Assembly (NCBI GenBank): GCA_008632985.1 | Contig: QPGO01000032.1 | Coordinates: 493,330-557,329 of the forward strand | DNA length: 64,000 nt | Direction of reading: 5' to 3' | DNA from: Psammoneis japonica | Taxonomy: Eukaryota | Part shown: positions 6,950 to 47,803 of the stretch, in pieces | How the letters are laid out: every line of letters begins with the position of its first letter | How positions within the stretch are numbered: position 1 is the stretch's first letter | The notes under the pieces: model-generated | What the model saw: only the letters and a program-made list of their open reading frames with translations | The model's database searches: none | Told to the model about the DNA's origin: nothing | Position numbers and translations under genes: made by a program

Positions 6950-8559
6950 GGCGGTTTTGACGATTTTGTGAGACCTTGATGTTGTCGCTGTCACCGATTT
7001 TTTGATGTTTGTTCCTGGACGTTCCTGCGAGAAGTACGTCAGCGCATGATGAGTTCGTTGCTGTTCGAGCGCCACTATGAACAGCCCATGTTCGCCTAAA
7101 TGCCACACCGGTACATAGTTTCCATGTCGATTGGCAGTAGTACCCGGTAGGCCGCGCCGTCTGCCGTACTTGATCACTAATACTACATTTGTGCGCTGTG
7201 CGCCATGGTGGAATCGAAATCATCATCATCAGGAGATCGGAGATCGTTTTCGCTCTCAAAGGTCCGTCCGTCTCCCGAACAATCGATTTCCGCGCAATAA
7301 AATAAAAAAGTGTGCGAAAATTTTAAAATTTTGATCAAGACAATGAATGCATGCATGGTGGACGCATGGCCTTCGCCTTCACATGCTTGTTTCGAGTGTC
7401 CCAGAAAATGACAAGCTGTGGGAGCTTGTGACCACAGAAGCAACAGCAAACTCCAGTGTGAAACAAGAGCACTCTCACCTTCTTCATCGCCAGTGCCACA
7501 AACTCGAAAGCTTGCAAAAAACACAAGTTGCGCCCTTTTGCTGCACCTGCACTCTTTTCCCACAAGATCTGCCTGTCATGTGGTGGAACCAGAGCACTCT
7601 CATCATGGTCACTGCCACCACCAACTCAAAGTGTGGAAAAAAGTGTGCCCTTTTGTGGTGTTTGTGATGTCTCCAAGACATCTCCTGGCTGTTGTGTGAT
7701 GGACTTTGACCACTTGTCCCACGGTTGCACACGCCATGCAAATTCTGAGCTGCGCAAATTTGACAGAGCAACTTCTGAACTGTTTTTAACACTCCATGAA
7801 CCACAACCTCTTTCAGCCATTTAGAACCCAGCAATTGTTAAAAGCAAACCAACGCAGCTGACACTCAGCATCGGCGGCACATGAAAAAACAAATTTTCAA
7901 TGTTCTCGCTGCTTTTCACTCTCACCAGCTTGTGATCTGCTGCTTTTCCACCTCTCTTCCAGTTGCCAATCATGCAAAAATGATCTTGTCAAATCACAAA
8001 GACTGTGCTCTGACTGTTTGAGCTTCTGCTCCTCATCCAAAAGAGTCATCTGCCCCACTTCCACGTGGATCCACCCGGTTGATCGTCTGAAACCGCGGCT
8101 GTTGCTGTCATCGGATGCGCAATCCTTTGGTTGTGATCAGGACCCAATCACCTGAGTCCTGTGCAAATCTTGTTCCATGACAAGCAAACATGCTGTGCTT
8201 TCTTAGAAAGTGCCGCATCCTCCAGTTTTTGGTGCGGCGATTCACGGCTGCTGCTGTGGAAAAGGCAGCGCAACAGTTTTCTGGACAAAATGCTCAAGTC
8301 AAATTGTTCCTGATTTCTTGGTCATTGCTTCTGCCATCCACATGTGAAAAGTCATGCTGTTGTGCTTTTGGCACATCTTGTTGCTGCAGCATGCCAGCTG
8401 CACTGGAGAAGGGTGTGACACCACAGTCTCTCTGCAGAGTGCAGCTCCAGCAAGTGACAGTTTTGCCAGGGTTTGGAATTTCCAGCAGCAGAGTGTCAAT
8501 GACTTGGTGCCAAGCATGCCCAGCGGAACTCCTTGAAGGGCTGCCGACACACATCATTG

Positions 8560-9700
8560 GGATTGTCACAGCTCATCACGTTGCTCCAACGCAAAATGAG
8601 CACGAAAGCAGCCATGCTGCTAGAGTGTCAGTGCACAAGTGCAAACACAACCCTTGTGTGCATGTTGCCTTTGTCTTTGCCCGCTTTGCTCTGTGCATCT
8701 TTGCATTCAGAACCACTTCAATCACATCGGCCTCCTCCAAAACACTCCGAGTGTCAACTGTTTGTGTTTCGTTGCCGGGACCCGGCAAAGGAACGCCGAT
8801 CGTTGAGTTTTTTGAGAAAAACACAGTCTCTTTTTCTTGTTTGTAGACAGCCACAACCTTTGCAATTGAATCGAATCCTTTCTTTGTGGCATTTCATGGC
8901 TTGGCAAAATCCCCCATTGCTCGAGACTTGTGAAACGGACCTGGCTGGTTTGAGCTGCTTTTGCAGCAACCTCAACACAGTCTTCCCACTGCGTCGTGCT
9001 TTTGGCTCAATTGTCGCCAGAAGAGGACAGGCAACACAAATGCAGTCAGCGTCTGCATTGGCGAGTGCCTCTTCTTCATTTGCTGGGATGGCCAACATGG
9101 GCTCAACATCACAGTTTGATGGGCCGCATCGTTGACAGTCCCTCAGGTGGCAACAATTCAACAAGTGATCTGTCATGATGTTGAACGCTTGGCAGCAACT
9201 TGGCAATCGTTTTGCAAGAAATTGGTGGGTGCAGCACATGAAGCGCTCATTCACCGCACCCACTGGACTGTCCAATGTGTCCATGAACAATCTGGTGCCA
9301 ACACAACAGTTGCCATTTTGACATCCTGGCAAACACCACACGGGGTCGTAGCCAGCGGGAGTGTTTTGCTTTCCGAGAAGGTCGCACCACTTCTCACATT
9401 TGCTGTTGGTGTCACAGTTTGGGAACGATGACGTTCCAGGTCCACACCAGCATTCATCGCCAAGCCCAAACAACAAATGGGCCAGTTCATGGATTGCAAC
9501 CAGTGGTGCTCAAGGGTGTGTTGACACTGTTGTGATGTTTGAAGTCATGCAGCCACCACCTCCATGGAGCCCAGAACAAGGGCTGCTCACGCCTGCAGGA
9601 AGATTCAAGACATCCATGAAGGATTTTGACCCAATGAAAAAGATGCCATTGCAGCACCCAGGCAGACACTTTGCAGGTTCATGAGGAGCTGGCGTGTTTT
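8560..9700 (-). pseudogene. Degraded paralogue (C-terminal part) of the M64-peptidase-like gene
   Basis: HELAHLLFGLGDECWCGPGTSSFPNCDTNSKCEKW...FMDTLDSPVGAVNERF aligns with the copy at 22.6-23.5 kb. Confidence 0.75.
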
Positions 9701-9976
9701 TTTCATGGGTCCTTCCACTTGTTGCATTTTCCAGTTGAACCACAACTCGGATCATCGTCAGTTGCCGGTCTGCATGTGTGCTCATTGTTGAGCTTGAACA
9801 GCGAGTGACCCAATTCATGTGCTGCCACCAGAGCAGCGCTCAGATGCACCACGGATGCAACTGCCATGTTGGAAAATGTGCACCCAGCTCAGACAATTGC
9901 TTTGCTGCCAGCCTGCAGTGGCTCAAGCATTTTCATCTCGATGCACAGGTGGTCTGATTTTCTTCCTGTTTTAAAT

Positions 9977-10555
9977 TCAGGGCTGTCTGCTGATCATCCT
10001 CTCAAAGCCAATCTCACCCAACTTCTTTTTCCTCTGTGGATCCATGGTCAATTCTCTGGCTGGCATATCTTTGCATTTGATTCTCTGGTTGTGAACCCAG
10101 TTGCCAATGGTCTTGTCTTCCTTCCATTTCCTTGGCATGTTGCAATTGCCGTGGATGTTGACATGCTCTTTCAACTTCTCGCACTGTGACATCCACTTCA
10201 CCTCCTGTGGCGCATTCTTTTTCTTCTCTGCACGAATTGCAAGTGGCTTCACACCCAAGTTGACAAGCATCTCCTTGCACTTGGCATCGAGCAAACCAAA
10301 CTTCATCAAGTGTCTCTGCTTGCTCAACCAACTCGCAAGTGCTCTCATTGTGGTGGGGTTGCAGAGAAGTCCAGTTTCTTCATGAATTGCTTGCAGCTGC
10401 TGAAACTTCAATTTCCACTTCTTGTCATTTGACACATGATGGACTGGAGTTGACTTGCAGTTGACACTTTCGAGGAGCCCAATTTGATCCTTTCGAAGCA
10501 TCTTTGCTCGGCGTCGTTGGCAGGTCAACCATTTCGCTAGATTTGCAAATTTCAT
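9977..10555 (-). pseudogene. Helicase-associated (HA, PF03457-like) repeat protein remnant
   Basis: Three HA-type repeats, e.g. KWMSQCEKLKEHVNIHGNCNMPRKWKEDKTIGNWVHNQR..QRKKKLGEIGF. Expected Tyr positions are Cys/His. Confidence 0.75.
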
Positions 10556-10639
10556 GATGTGCTCAGCATTGAGTGCTTTGCTTGTGAGATTCTCTTATGA
10601 CCAGCACATGCAACAGTGTGGTTGTGCAGTTTGTTTGTG

Positions 10640-11570
10640 TGCTGCTGAGCTTTCTGCTGTAAAATGCCACCAGCAAGTCTTGCAAGGGGCACCAAAACTT
10701 CTGATTGTCTGTGCTTCCACATGTCTTGGTGGCACTTGACCAACCACACCAACAAATGACTCATGTTCTTTCTTGTCCTTTGGCCAAACAATGTGCTGTG
10801 TGGCCTCAACCATTTCTGCAAGGGCTGGATGCCATCATGAGTGACCTCATGTCCAAGATGCTCCGCAAGTGCATTTGGCAGAACAGTGACTTTGAGGCAT
10901 TGATCCGAAGTCAAGTGTCTTGAAGCCTTTTAAAATTGATCACAGTGTCCACCTTTTCAAGGTGGTCATCCAATGTGCCTTTTGTGATGACCAGCAGGTC
11001 ATCCATGCACATGTGCAAAAAAGACAAATCCCAAAACAAAGCTGACATTTCCTCCTGAAAAATGTCCAGTGAGTCACACAAGCCCATTTGCAGGCACAAC
11101 ATCTCACATTTTCCTCATGGAAAAATTAAAGTGAAAGCTTGCATGATGCTGCACCGAGCTTCATGTGACAGCAGCCCATGTTTTCAGATCAAGCAACACC
11201 ACCCATTGAAACACTTGAGTTTTAAGAGCATGTTCTGGATGTGTGGGATGGCCAGGACAAAGCATTTGCTTTCTCCTCTTGTTTGACTGGCTGTGCTGTT
11301 TGACTCTTTTTTGGGATGGCAAATGATCGTGCCACCTGCACTGAGCAGTTTGCTTTCTCCAAGAGGTCAATTTTTGTGTGAAAGCTTGACCTTGTCTTTC
11401 AGCATCTGCTCACAAAAAGCATGGGGGCATTTTGTGTGGTCTTGCATGGTGTGGCTTGGTGTCTGATCCTTTGATTTGATGTGGCAAGGTTTGCCTTTCC
11501 ACTTGCCCAGTGTTGAGCTTCTACCAAACATTGCTGTGACTGCTTTTGTGCACTCAGCACCACACAATTG
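10640..11570 (-). mobile_element. Ty3/gypsy reverse transcriptase remnant
   Basis: QMGLCDSLDIFQEEMSALF.DLSFLHMCMDDLLVITKGTLDDHLEKV (YxDD read as CMDD), EHLGHEVTHDGIQPL, HQDMWKHRQSEVLVPL. Multiple frameshifts. Confidence 0.75.
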
Positions 11571-47100: not shown

Positions 47101-47397
47101 GTGCACACTTTACATGTATTTTCGGGTGTGCACTTGCCTTTTGATTTTCGAAACGATCAAAATTGAAGGAGTCATTTGCGCCAAACTGCGCAGAAAATCG
47201 GCCTCTCGCGTGATGAAAAGTGGATCACCTGGAGCTGGAACAGGCCACAAGCTGTGCTTCCTCAGACACTTGTTCATCGCTGAAAACCAAACAAAAATGT
47301 TCACTTTGATCCTCAGAAAAGGATTCTTTGCAAGCTCTCCACCCCTTTGCATGTTTGTCATTCAGCTCCTTGCTGTCATTTGATTTGCATCATTCCA
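41129..47397. repeat. Tandem duplication of an unidentified 3.1-kb TpA-depleted unit (41129-44295, 44296-47397)
   Basis: Both units start AGTTGGGAG(T/C)TGAGCAAAT and end TTTGCATCATTCCA. TpA depletion continues to about 48570. Confidence 0.85.
43095..43290 (+). repeat. Degenerate 7-mer minisatellite (CCATCCA/GCATCCA), repeated at about 46180-46390
   Basis: Visible CATC periodicity. The second copy has an extra 16-bp duplication. Confidence 0.8.
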
Positions 47398-47447
47398 GCC
47401 ATCAGCTTCTCCACTGCGTTTCCCTCTTGCAAATGTTTTTTTTTGGA

Positions 47448-47448
<1 letters not shown>

Positions 47449-47478
<30 letters not shown>
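47449..47478 (+). repeat. (GCA)n microsatellite
   Basis: About 10 perfect GCA units. Confidence 0.9.
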
Positions 47479-47481
<3 letters not shown>

Positions 47482-47803
47482 CAGCTGCCACTCCTTTTCT
47501 CTTTTCTGCATCCATTTGGCTTGCAGCCAGTGTGCTCACCCCAGTGCTGGCTTGGTCCATCAGACAAGGTCAAGGTGCCCATTCTGCTGCAAAGACCATC
47601 TTTGAACTGACCAAATCAAGCTCTGTTGCAACACTGTGCTGGAGAGTTTCCTGTCACATCCCTCTCAATGTGTCCCTGCACAAAAGTTTCCTCATGTCTT
47701 TCACCATCTGGCTTGATGTGGGCACCCAGTTCCATGGCACACTCTGTTTGTAAATTCACCCCACGCATTTTTGACACCTGCCAGTGCCGCGAAATCAGCC
47801 ACT

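Follow-up and report, generated by a model that had tools for sequence, protein, structure and literature searches.

TA-poor tracts and the elements within them

The window analysed here, a 64,000-nucleotide stretch of the Psammoneis japonica genome, contains three TA-poor tracts. Tract 1 (7325..26400), delimited by TA counts and dinucleotide observed/expected (O/E) ratios, holds 0–7 TA per 500 b compared with 9–40 outside; its TA O/E is 0.01–0.16 and its CA and TG O/E are 1.3–2.1. The left edge is sharp, with the final dense TA at 7324 and the following one at 7787, and the right edge is gradual, extending from 25000 to 26400. Tract 2 (28630..37627) is built from a 4.77-kb unit present twice in tandem (28484-33262 and 33256-37628, 97.5% alike), and its sharp right edge coincides with the X2|X3 repeat junction. 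Beyond that junction, repeat alignment placed a little-mutated third copy, X3Y3 (37627..38991), comprising a 951-b X repeat and a Y segment. Tract 3 (41370..48470) is poor in both TA and CpG, includes an older repeat pair (41801-44295 and 44846-47397, 89% alike) and a run of N at 47804-48102, and has 15 TA sites left.

Tract 1 harbors a Copia-type LTR retrotransposon on the forward strand (14485..21584), with LTRs at 14485-14760 and 21309-21584 that are 92% alike and a reverse transcriptase reading frame at 19484-21358 (RVT_2, E 1.5e-22). The 22 differences between the LTRs include 3 of the TA/TG-or-CA type, 5 TG/CA and 6 CpG-type, with 3 other among those classed. Among 61 Copia codon changes polarised by means of 120 protein relatives, 30 were TA to TG or CA and 12 were CpG-type. 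Twenty-two of the 27 conserved Copia tyrosines are now Cys (16) or His (6). Over 4363 aligned b, the tandem copies of tract 2 have 99 mismatches, and all but 15 of these belong to the TA-to-TG/CA, TG-versus-CA or CpG-type class. One open frame of this unit (33453..36713, forward strand), 1087 codons long and without a Pfam family, encodes 1 Tyr, 55 Cys and 51 His; the 31 tyrosines of P0121, its one usable relative (36% identity), align with Cys in 10 cases, His in 10, Tyr in 1 and other residues in 10. Collectively, these comparisons show a mutator at work in the silent tracts that converts TpA to TpG or CpA. The process acts at the DNA level and after insertion: TA/TG, TA/CA and TG/CA differences predominate within the LTR pair and between the tandem copies, both strands are hit, and DNA of single-copy depth is affected.

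The affected single-copy-depth DNA includes an open frame on the reverse strand with a weak Peptidase_M64 match (23268..25289, E 1.6e-7), a region with 1–6 TA per 500 b. Word depth is 50–100 across 21737-24404 and reaches up to 380 in the 24405-25071 bin, compared with about 64,000–147,000 for Copia and about 50–100 for single-copy DNA. In contrast, the high-copy stretch between tracts 1 and 2 (26405..28627) remains TA-rich and unmutated, with 26–40 TA per 500 b at a word depth of about 4200–5300. Because DNA at single-copy depth is mutated while a stretch at roughly 50–100 times that depth is spared, copy number is not the trigger of TA loss.

Context of the surviving TA sites

For counting, we used blocks spanning 7501-26000, 28501-37500 and 41501-48500 (34,500 b), which retain 188 TA sites, and took the rest of the window as an unmutated reference (28,500 b, 1179 TA sites). 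The ancestral NTAN baseline is therefore adjoining unmutated DNA rather than the elements' own ancestors; the four reference regions were alike in NTAN make-up (p 0.68), including 26405..28627, which was counted within the reference. Survivors in the blocks, compared with the reference, numbered 28 vs 51 for TTAA, 45 vs 92 for CTAA/TTAG, 17 vs 53 for CTAG, 37 vs 173 for CTAC/GTAG, 24 vs 150 for GTAA/TTAC, 18 vs 157 for ATAA/TTAT, 7 vs 147 for ATAG/CTAT, 6 vs 178 for ATAC/GTAT, 5 vs 103 for GTAC and 1 vs 75 for ATAT. Across these ten classes, survival was not uniform (chi2 130.0, 9 df, p 1.2e-23). A sequence-only reading had named TTAA, TTAG/CTAA, CTAG and CTAC/GTAG as the common survivors and ATAT, GTAT/ATAC and GTAC as the rare ones; the former account for 127 of the 188 sites and the latter for 12, and the biased context of the surviving TAs is thereby confirmed.

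The same bias was seen throughout the blocks. The Y-TA-R share was 43–71% in all five sub-blocks compared with 15–22% outside, peaking in the two most depleted sub-blocks (0.71 and 0.60), and the R-TA-Y share was 4–13% compared with 29–31% outside. When second copies of repeats within the window were removed, 151 survivors and 875 reference sites still differed (chi2 105.5, p 1.2e-18), and the observed Y-TA-R share of 0.47 was not reached in any of 20,000 random draws from the reference TAs. X3Y3 also provides the 'before' state for copies 31903-33262 and 36676-37628, which allows a baseline-free comparison of a little-mutated with a mutated copy. Of its 45 aligned TA sites, 16 are kept in 31903-33262: 5/10 Y-TA-R, 11/27 mixed and 0/8 R-TA-Y, a small test that gives p 0.06 alone.

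A strand-resolved 3' pyrimidine rule

When repeat copies were compared strand by strand, T[A]Y differed at 31 of 48 sites and T[A]R at 15 of 62 (odds ratio 5.7, p 3e-5); by +1 base, the differing fractions were 20/31 for C, 11/17 for T, 9/35 for G and 6/27 for A. At sites with a 3' pyrimidine on one strand alone, hits fell on the pyrimidine strand 41:11 (p 3.6e-5), a ratio composed of copy pairs (22:8, taking TA as ancestral), Copia codons (15:1) and the block-2 frame (4:2), after removal of events common to two copies, for which parallel and inherited hits are indistinguishable. All data come from one window and the copies are related, so the events are not fully independent. Of the conserved Copia tyrosine codons, those preceded by a pyrimidine mutated to Cys in 11 cases and to His in one, and those preceded by a purine to Cys in 5 and to His in 5. 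We conclude that the mutator hits the strands separately and that 5'-T-A-Y-3' is almost certainly hit about four times faster than 5'-T-A-R-3'; this supports the preference for T-A-Y, with a 3' purine disfavoured, that the sequence-only reading had proposed.

A hazard model based on the 3' base only had the best AIC (-692.5, compared with -537.8 for a uniform model), with relative rates of 2.1 for T, 1.5 for C, 0.6 for G and 0.4 for A, and it matched the ten survivor classes (chi2 8.0, 6 df, p 0.24). The separate 5' rule of the earlier reading (D at -2, with 5' C disfavoured) did not hold up: a -2-only model reached an AIC of only -628.8, adding the -2 base to the 3'-only model brought no gain (likelihood-ratio p 0.39), and repeat copies differed at 16/33 sites after a -2 purine and 29/76 after a pyrimidine (p 0.40). 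The seeming 5' C effect arises from a 3' G on the opposite strand. Since one hit on either strand is enough to lose a TA, Y-TA-R sites (TTAA, CTAA/TTAG, CTAG) survive because both strands offer a poor context, and R-TA-Y sites (ATAT, GTAC, ATAC/GTAT) vanish because both offer a good one. The comparison of TT[A]T with AT[A]A gave 10:4 only. The 3' rule is not the whole story, since survivors show a strong excess of A at +2 (46% vs 27%, p 3e-14), yet this base does not steer strand choice (19 vs 23). A preference for hairpin loops was not detectable (22/44 vs 21/60, p 0.16). In copy 37627-38577, five private TA hits and one A-A-T change all lie on the same strand, including one that breaks the context rule, which points to episodic, strand-wise action added to context.

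Adenines outside TA form a weak second target, R-A-Y, at a rate about 60–110 times below that of TA. In the same copy pair, T[A]Y differed at 16/27 sites and A[A]Y at 4/262, a roughly 60-fold difference in rate. As to the base at -1, the rate is highest after T, about 60 times lower after A and about 110 times lower after G, which shows this position to be the stringent determinant. These leak sites obey the same 3' rule: R-[A/G]-Y is the site of all 11 transitions between copies that involve neither TA nor CpG, and of 5 of the 6 polarised non-TA A-to-G changes in Copia. Single-step differences at TA were transitions in 48 of 49 cases, and the AA dinucleotide is not depleted (O/E 0.99–1.52 in blocks vs 0.99–1.42 outside). 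The AA-to-AG changes noted earlier in the LTR pair are real and all precede a pyrimidine, but their suggested link to Pol eta fails on the 60-fold faster hitting of TA and on the transitions.

A candidate mutator and its relation to known systems

Taken as a whole, the biased TA context is best explained, and probably so, as the footprint of a mutator acting on DNA after insertion. Adenine deaminase chemistry is a serious but still tentative candidate, suggested by the pattern of changes: such an enzyme, acting on the DNA of silenced regions, would yield A-to-G changes because hypoxanthine pairs with C. It would probably act on one exposed strand at a time, and its own sequence pocket may require T at -1 and favor a pyrimidine at +1. 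The same data are symmetric, however, since TA to TG on one strand is TA to CA on the other, and they fit equally an enzyme that modifies the thymine of 5'-R-T-A-3', such as one that oxidises it to a G-mispairing base and so yields T to C. The 3' pyrimidine rule would then be a 5' purine rule seen from the other strand, and the leak sites would correspond to R-[T]-T and R-[T]-C. Oxidised thymines can miscode. Nevertheless, polynucleotide deaminases usually take most of their specificity from the -1 base (TC, CC, UA), and a strict T at -1 with a softer +1 matches the adenine reading. The sole published parallel likewise proposes adenine deamination (bioRxiv 10.64898/2026.01.13.699255), and we consider a thymine target unlikely. 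A footprint measures net fixation alone, so the bias could also belong to a repair enzyme that, for example, excises hypoxanthine better before a purine from a uniform TpA lesion. A fourfold effect may lie within the range of such repair, and although A-A-Y and G-A-Y leak sites follow the 3' rule too, either reading permits this; we regard repair bias as improbable.

That the bias reflects no survival effect at all, but ancestral make-up, later TAs arising from CA or TG, or selection on TAA and TAG stops, is very doubtful. The make-up of the block DNA did differ, and the tetranucleotide balance against the reference does not close (G..C gain 571 vs loss 255). However, the bias appears in five blocks of different origin and rises with depletion, the before/after pair gives the same order, and the per-strand and strand-choice tests are independent of the baseline. 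In addition, fewer than 2 back-mutations are estimated between the 97.5% copies compared with 23 observed TA differences, and 188 sites far exceed what stop codons could account for. If a Pol eta-like polymerase made errors while filling in patches, as happens in the A:T phase of antibody hypermutation, a WA pattern would formally result, with TA as the main and AA as a minor target. Pol eta errors at A:T include many transversions, and the near absence of these at TA, the contrast between T[A]Y and A[A]Y and the undepleted AA make this source highly improbable. Least credible is editing of transposon transcripts by ADAR-like or Tad2/Tad3-like enzymes, fixed by reverse transcription: ADARs and fungal Tad2/Tad3 do favor U before the edited A (PMC10661471; PMC4817773), but in the work cited the favored 3' base is a purine for both (UAG for ADARs, UAG and UAA for the fungal enzyme), which runs counter to the present rule. 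Moreover, LTRs are identical at insertion yet now differ by TA-type changes, hits occur on both strands (16 Tyr-to-Cys and 6 Tyr-to-His changes), and mutated single-copy-depth DNA carried no retroelement domain that we could find.

For ADARs, A at -1 is nearly equal to U. Their motif, 5'-UAG, shares the A-to-G outcome and the favored -1 U with the diatom changes (PMC10661471), but they act on dsRNA and prefer a 3' G; in the diatom, A at -1 is about 60 times worse than T and a 3' G about 3 times worse than a pyrimidine, and the ADAR fingerprint does not fit. Pol eta resembles the diatom process in being directed to A:T with W before the mutated A, WA being a hotspot of somatic hypermutation (PMC6423074). 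Its fingerprint was likewise rejected, since TA is hit far above AA and changes are nearly all transitions.

Repeat-induced point mutation (RIP) converts CpA to TpA, whereas the diatom process runs in reverse, from TpA to CpA or TpG, and by the genetic code is unable to create an in-frame stop codon. Copy number, moreover, is not its trigger. It is like RIP in Neurospora and other fungi, as described, in its dinucleotide-specific transitions on both strands of mobile DNA within sharply bounded tracts (PMC7296669).

Among deaminases, the fungal Tad2/Tad3 editor is reported to need U at -1 (PMC4817773; PMC11156358), and amphioxus BjADAT2, described as the only natural ADAT2 with demonstrated deamination of adenine in DNA, provides a precedent for DNA substrates (PMC10354150). 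However, fungal UAG and UAA and the GAA preferred by BjADAT2 carry the 3' purine least favored in the diatom, and the fungal Tad2/3 fingerprint does not fit. The resemblance to TadA suggested by the sequence-only reading stands in part. Bacterial TadA, a tRNA and mRNA adenosine deaminase with a reported core motif TACG, has T/U at -1 and C at +1 (PMC5630033), and its typical coding outcome, Tyr (TAC) to Cys, recalls the 16/27 conserved Copia tyrosines. In contrast, TadA works on RNA loops and needs G at +2, whereas the diatom substrate is genomic DNA, T at +1 is as good as C, and survival at TACG is about 3 times that at TACC/TACT. Evolved ABEs accept A in a wide range of contexts, according to the work on BjADAT2 (PMC10354150). 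The 3' rule accounts for which TAs remain and restricts the kinds of enzyme.

The one published parallel to TpA hypermutation comes from a 2026 preprint on giant-virus and virophage DNA integrated in Bigelowiella natans (Mettrop et al., bioRxiv 10.64898/2026.01.13.699255), where changes are reported as nearly all A-to-G or T-to-C and all on TpA, giving TpG or CpA by strand; the effect there is local and in DNA that is foreign or mobile, and over the long term TpA is depleted and CpA and TpG increase. An adenine deaminase is only proposed there, and the preprint's main text, as far as it goes, gives no wider sequence context of the TpA hits. Unlike in Bigelowiella, the host here is a diatom, the process strikes retrotransposons, other repeats and the single-copy DNA next to them, and depletion is near saturation, with TA O/E down to 0.01. 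What is new relative to that main text is the preference for a 3' pyrimidine, the leak at R-A-Y and the effect of the +2 base.

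Contexts of surviving TA sites

The window is diatom nuclear DNA. It carries a GAPDH gene on the minus strand at 54900-56057, whose named relatives of ordinary length in a protein search are all from diatoms (Nitzschia, Pseudo-nitzschia, Cylindrotheca, Ditylum and others, at 66-70% identity), the two top-scoring matches being longer insect entries (602-659 aa, 55-57% identity). TpA is nearly absent from about half of the window, with 0-7 TA per 500-base bin in three tracts versus 9-40 outside. Within tract 1 (about 7325-26400, with a gradual right edge), tract 2 (28630-37627, with a sharp right edge) and tract 3 (41370-48470), the observed/expected ratio (O/E) of TA is 0.01-0.25, while that of CA/TG is raised to 1.26-2.14. 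The sharp edge coincides with the junction at 37627 between X2 and X3, copies of a 951-base repeat. At 14485-21584 the tracts carry a Copia-type LTR element, whose RVT_2 domain lies at 19484-21358. A 4.77-kb unit is present in two tandem copies with 97.5% likeness (28484-33262 and 33256-37628), and an older repeat pair is 89% alike (41801-44295 and 44846-47397). Tract DNA also includes stretches with host-like domains, namely an HA domain (9980-10594) and, on the minus strand of tract 1, an open frame of 674 codons that weakly matches Peptidase_M64 (23268-25289).

Differences between young copies fall into few classes, namely TA/TG, TA/CA, TG/CA at one site, and CpG/TpG or CpG/CpA; the 4.77-kb pair has 99 mismatches in 4363 aligned bases, with 15 mismatched bases outside these classes. 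The target is therefore DNA that has already been inserted, with both strands affected, and ordinary CpG decay goes on beside the process. The older pair was left out of these comparisons as too decayed, with 2 TA-retaining and 86 unclassified differences. CpG is nearly lost in 7501-14500 (1-19 CG per 500 bases, O/E 0.10-0.45) and in 41501-48500, but is kept in the Copia part (14501-21600, 25-41 per 500 bases), although TA is gone in all three; the two decays are thus separable.

With every N-TA-N counted, 188 TA sites survive in 34.5 kb of tracts, compared to 1179 in the 28.5 kb of remaining, unmutated window DNA that served as reference. A sequence-only reading had proposed that the survivors have a biased context. 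The contexts it described as common (TTAA, CTAA/TTAG, CTAG and CTAC/GTAG) account for 127 of the 188 survivors and those it described as rare (ATAT, ATAC/GTAT and GTAC) for 12. Survival corrected for composition is not uniform, the survivor classes departing strongly from the reference distribution (chi2 130, 9 df, p 1.2e-23). Scaled by length, arithmetic on the class counts gives Y-TA-R sites a survival of about 0.38, mixed sites one of 0.11 and R-TA-Y sites one of 0.03. The Y-TA-R share is 0.43-0.71 in each of five sub-blocks of different origin versus 0.15-0.22 in four reference regions, which are themselves alike in NTAN make-up (p 0.68), and the bias is greatest in the two most depleted sub-blocks. 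When second repeat copies were dropped, 151 survivors remained (chi2 105.5), with a bias reached by 0 of 20,000 random subsets.

A before-and-after pair within the window shows the same ordering and needs no baseline. The little-mutated third copy of the X repeat with the adjoining Y segment, X3Y3 (37627-38991), lies just outside tract 2 and aligns at 45 TA sites with the mutated copy at 31903-33262, in which TA is kept at 5/10 Y-TA-R, 11/27 mixed and 0/8 R-TA-Y sites. Gain and loss of tetranucleotides relative to reference DNA run in the same direction, with more TG than CA product at Y-TA-Y, although the balance does not close and this comparison was therefore given no weight. An A at +2 (equivalent to T at -3), counted from the target A, is enriched among survivors in every +1 class (46% vs 27% overall, p 3e-14), and no effect of this base on strand choice was seen (19 vs 23). 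It may be a site-level effect, for example of local DNA shape, or may reflect heterogeneity of exposure.

The base 3' of the target adenine

Survival alone cannot separate an effect of the base at +1 of the A from that of the base preceding the T, since either flank, complemented, is the other one on the opposite strand. Comparison between copies, scored per strand, separates the two. An A/G difference at T[A]N was found at 20/31 sites with C at +1, 11/17 with T, 9/35 with G and 6/27 with A, so that pyrimidine and purine differ by an odds ratio of 5.7 (31/48 vs 15/62, p 3e-5). In the same comparison the base at -2 had no detectable effect (16/33 vs 29/76, p 0.40).

Strand choice can also be read from the product, since TG reports a hit on the upper strand and CA one on the lower; sites with one pyrimidine-followed A are informative. 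Between copy pairs (56 events, those common to two copies removed), the choice was 22:8 in favor of the pyrimidine-followed strand. Close DNA copies of the mutated Copia reverse transcriptase were unlikely in metagenome contigs, its best protein relatives being 53-66% identical, and these relatives of the reverse transcriptase and integrase region (best 120 of 1694 matches) served as outgroup. Conserved tyrosines make up 27 of 558 conserved codons and are now 16 Cys, 6 His, 2 Tyr, 2 Phe and 1 Trp. Where the tyrosine codon follows a pyrimidine, so that the sense strand alone offers a 3' pyrimidine, the outcome is 11 Cys and 1 His; after a purine, with a 3' pyrimidine on both strands, it is 5 Cys and 5 His. 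Over all events at asymmetric TA sites, the Copia element gives 15:1 for the pyrimidine-followed strand. The 1087-codon open frame of the 4.77-kb unit (33453-36713, plus strand) contains 1 Tyr, 55 Cys and 51 His. Two relatives were found for it, at 36% and 24% identity; one was usable and, for Tyr only, gave 4:2 after pyrimidine and 6:8 after purine. Taken together, strand choice totals 41:11 (p 3.6e-5).

We combined ten survivor classes and 106 product choices in a joint likelihood fit. A model in which the 3' base alone matters was best (AIC -692.5), ahead of one with both bases (-689.5), one with the -2 base only (-628.8) and a uniform rate (-537.8). Relative per-strand rates by +1 base are 2.14 for T, 1.48 for C, 0.57 for G and 0.37 for A, and the 3'-only model recovers the numbers of survivors in the ten classes (chi2 8.0, 6 df, p 0.24). 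No improvement came from including the -2 base as well (likelihood-ratio p 0.39). The rule is thus 5'-T-A-Y-3', favored about four-fold over T-A-R. The preference for T-A-Y and the disfavor of a 3' purine had both been proposed from the sequence alone and are upheld here; the accompanying suggestion of an independent penalty for a 5' C is not, that base being the 3' G of the other strand.

At TA, copies differ by 49 single-step changes, of which 48 are transitions and one is a transversion. The 61 polarized single-step codon changes in the Copia element comprise 36 of the A>G or T>C type, 12 CpG transitions and 13 transversions. Every one of the 10 polarized T>C changes lies at [T]A, and T[A] accounts for 20 of the 26 A>G changes; outside TA, three A-to-G changes are at A[A]T, two at G[A]T and one at A[A]G. 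In these codons we found no non-CpG G-to-A change and no T-to-C change outside TA. The additional AA-to-AG changes remarked on in the sequence-only reading are real. Isolated transitions between copies number 100; T[A/G] accounts for 55 of them, CpG-type changes for 34 and a second, weak target, R-[A/G]-Y, for 11 (A-R-C 4, A-R-T 4, G-R-C 2, G-R-T 1). None of the 11 precedes a purine; the chance of all lying before a pyrimidine is 0.45^11 = 1.5e-4. Within one copy pair the differing fraction is 0.59 at T[A]Y (16/27), 0.18 at T[A]R, 0.015 at A[A]Y (4/262) and 0.008 at G[A]Y, with no differing site at A[A]R (0/362) or G[A]R (0/344). By this rough estimate, from 4 and 2 events, the rate with A at -1 is about 60-fold lower than with T, and that with G about 110-fold lower.

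Reach, coding consequences and possible mechanism

Copy number is not the governing factor. The segment at 21737-24404, which includes part of the M64-like frame, has a single-copy word depth of 50-100 and yet is TA-poor. Conversely, the segment at 26405-28627 has a word depth of about 4200-5300, versus about 50-100 for single-copy DNA, and is unmutated, with the densest TA of the whole window (26-40 per 500 bases); neither a Pfam domain nor clear terminal repeats were found in it. The process therefore covers non-repeated DNA inside a tract too. Contigs from one sequencing run differ from the window at 1561 places in 14400-34399. Among the 40 places listed, contigs at single-copy depth show CA-versus-TG double changes at 21728/9, 22202/3 and 25894/5, TA versus TG or CA at 22966, 24082, 25958, 26262 and 26288, and one A-A-T/A-G-T change at 26373. 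These contigs may represent the other haplotype, and hence recent activity. Two of the 120 Copia reverse transcriptase relatives, P0102 and P0055 from ENA metagenome assemblies, have Cys or His at 10/19 and 12/26 conserved tyrosines, where the next highest count among the relatives is 3 and the median 0; hypermutated copies of the Copia family are thus present in other data sets.

By the genetic code, a change of TA to TG or CA makes no in-frame stop and removes TAA and TAG, so that mutated elements keep long open frames, and the preferred context, when in frame, is a tyrosine codon and erases Tyr. Each strand of the tracts carries open frames 200-1000 codons long, in more than one frame, for example at 16233-17972 (minus) over 16234-18567 (plus), and most of them are not genes. 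Loss of Tyr from frames that stay open (1 of 1087 residues in one of them) hides elements from domain searches and inflates ORF counts.

The process acts on DNA, after insertion and per strand; it is strict for T at -1, about four-fold sensitive to the 3' base, and yields nearly all transitions. These properties would fit an adenine deaminase acting on the DNA of silenced domains, in which A would be converted to hypoxanthine and then read as G, possibly in episodes on one exposed strand. Hits specific to X3 (37627-38577), five TA-to-CA changes and one A-A-T change, all fall on one strand, which suggests such episodes; one of these hits goes against the 3' rule. Three states, TTAA, TTGA and TCGA, occur across the X copies at 31954/5, 36728/9 and 37678/9, reflecting either the decay of a CpG or a rare double change from TA to CG.

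Read from the other strand, the same data describe a thymine target, R-[T]-A, and thymine-directed chemistry would account for them in those terms; we consider it unlikely. That damage is uniform and the context arises in repair seems to us quite improbable; here the bias would belong to the repair step. Returning to adenine deamination, we put forward with considerable reserve the wider proposal that diatoms possess a dedicated DNA adenine deaminase with a T-A-pyrimidine pocket, aimed strand-wise at silenced chromatin, and that the TpA hypermutation of Bigelowiella is the work of the same enzyme family. If so, SAR lineages would have an ancient genome defence of this kind, and its enzyme would be the first natural DNA adenine deaminase with sequence specificity to serve in defence, one outside the context preference of every adenosine deaminase compared. 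No enzyme of TadA/ADAT2 fold is encoded in the window open frames scanned. Should the agent be a natural DNA adenine deaminase, it would be of interest for base-editing work. The rule itself (strict T at -1, pyrimidine at +1, an R-A-Y leak, almost no transversions) is a biochemical specification against which candidate enzymes can be vetted, and on this measure Pol eta and activities like those of ADAR or fungal Tad2/Tad3 already drop out.

Comparison with known systems

The known FINGERPRINTS compared were TadA, fungal Tad2/Tad3, ADAR, amphioxus ADAT2, evolved ABEs and Pol eta. Early base editors preferred YAC, which plays no part in the comparison. The sequence-only reading had likened the TAY preference to TadA-type deaminases, a resemblance that is loose. 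Bacterial TadA is described as editing TACG (PMC5630033), and in the window T at -1 is favored, and C at +1 is favored over purines. However, T at +1 is here as good as C (11/17 vs 20/31; rates 2.14 vs 1.48) and G at +2 is not favored, TACG having about three times the survival of TACC/TACT (26 survivors for 174 reference sites vs 18 for 352; odds ratio 2.9, p 8e-4), a figure that methylation and decay of CpG within the tracts may affect. Folds were predicted for single-stranded DNA windows of 41 bases; in this small sample, 22/44 hit As lay in a hairpin loop compared to 21/60 unhit As (p 0.16), and unpaired probability did not differ between them (p 0.66). The near-saturated loss of TA argues against a strict hairpin-loop requirement.

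The other deaminases favor or tolerate a 3' purine, the worst context in the window. The fungal Tad2/Tad3 mRNA editor is described as favoring UAG and UAA (PMC4817773) and ADARs as favoring UAG (PMC10661471). Amphioxus ADAT2, a natural ADAT2 reported to deaminate A in DNA, favors GAA, and the A context of evolved ABEs is given as broad (both PMC10354150). An ADAR or fungal Tad2/Tad3 fingerprint is rejected by the low rates before 3' purines (G 0.57, A 0.37; 15/62 vs 31/48). For Pol eta, to which the AA-to-AG changes had been thought to point, a WA pattern is described (PMC6423074); this pointer fails on the TA-to-AA ratio (A[A]Y 4/262 and A[A]R 0/362 vs T[A]Y 16/27) and on the near-absence of transversions (1/49 at TA). 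A further system compared, RIP, converts C to T at CpA and is set off by sequence duplication. It is opposite in direction, and DNA at 26.4-28.4 kb is high-copy and unmutated while that at 21.7-24.4 kb is mutated at single-copy depth.

Closest to what is seen here is a TpA-restricted hypermutation described for integrated viral DNA in Bigelowiella natans (bioRxiv 10.64898/2026.01.13.699255), the one relevant prior description of a TpA-erasing process retrieved in a full-text literature search; a SPLASH preprint checked as possible prior art proved unrelated. In both cases the mutations are nearly all A-to-G/T-to-C (here 48/49 transitions at TA) and TpA becomes TpG or CpA according to strand, here with the R-A-Y leak in addition (11/100). 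Both affect local tracts in foreign or mobile DNA, in this window Copia and other repeats, with TpA down and CpA and TpG up. In Bigelowiella the mutations were seen to arise de novo in cultured lines; here, CA/TG and TA/TG differences between the window and the contigs of one run, at single-copy depth, are a hint of recent activity. The main text of the Bigelowiella preprint treats the dinucleotide only, without wider context. The TpA-erasing process itself thus has a single parallel in the literature, whereas the context rule resolved by strand is new and can be compared with the 231 mutations that arose de novo in the Bigelowiella experiment.
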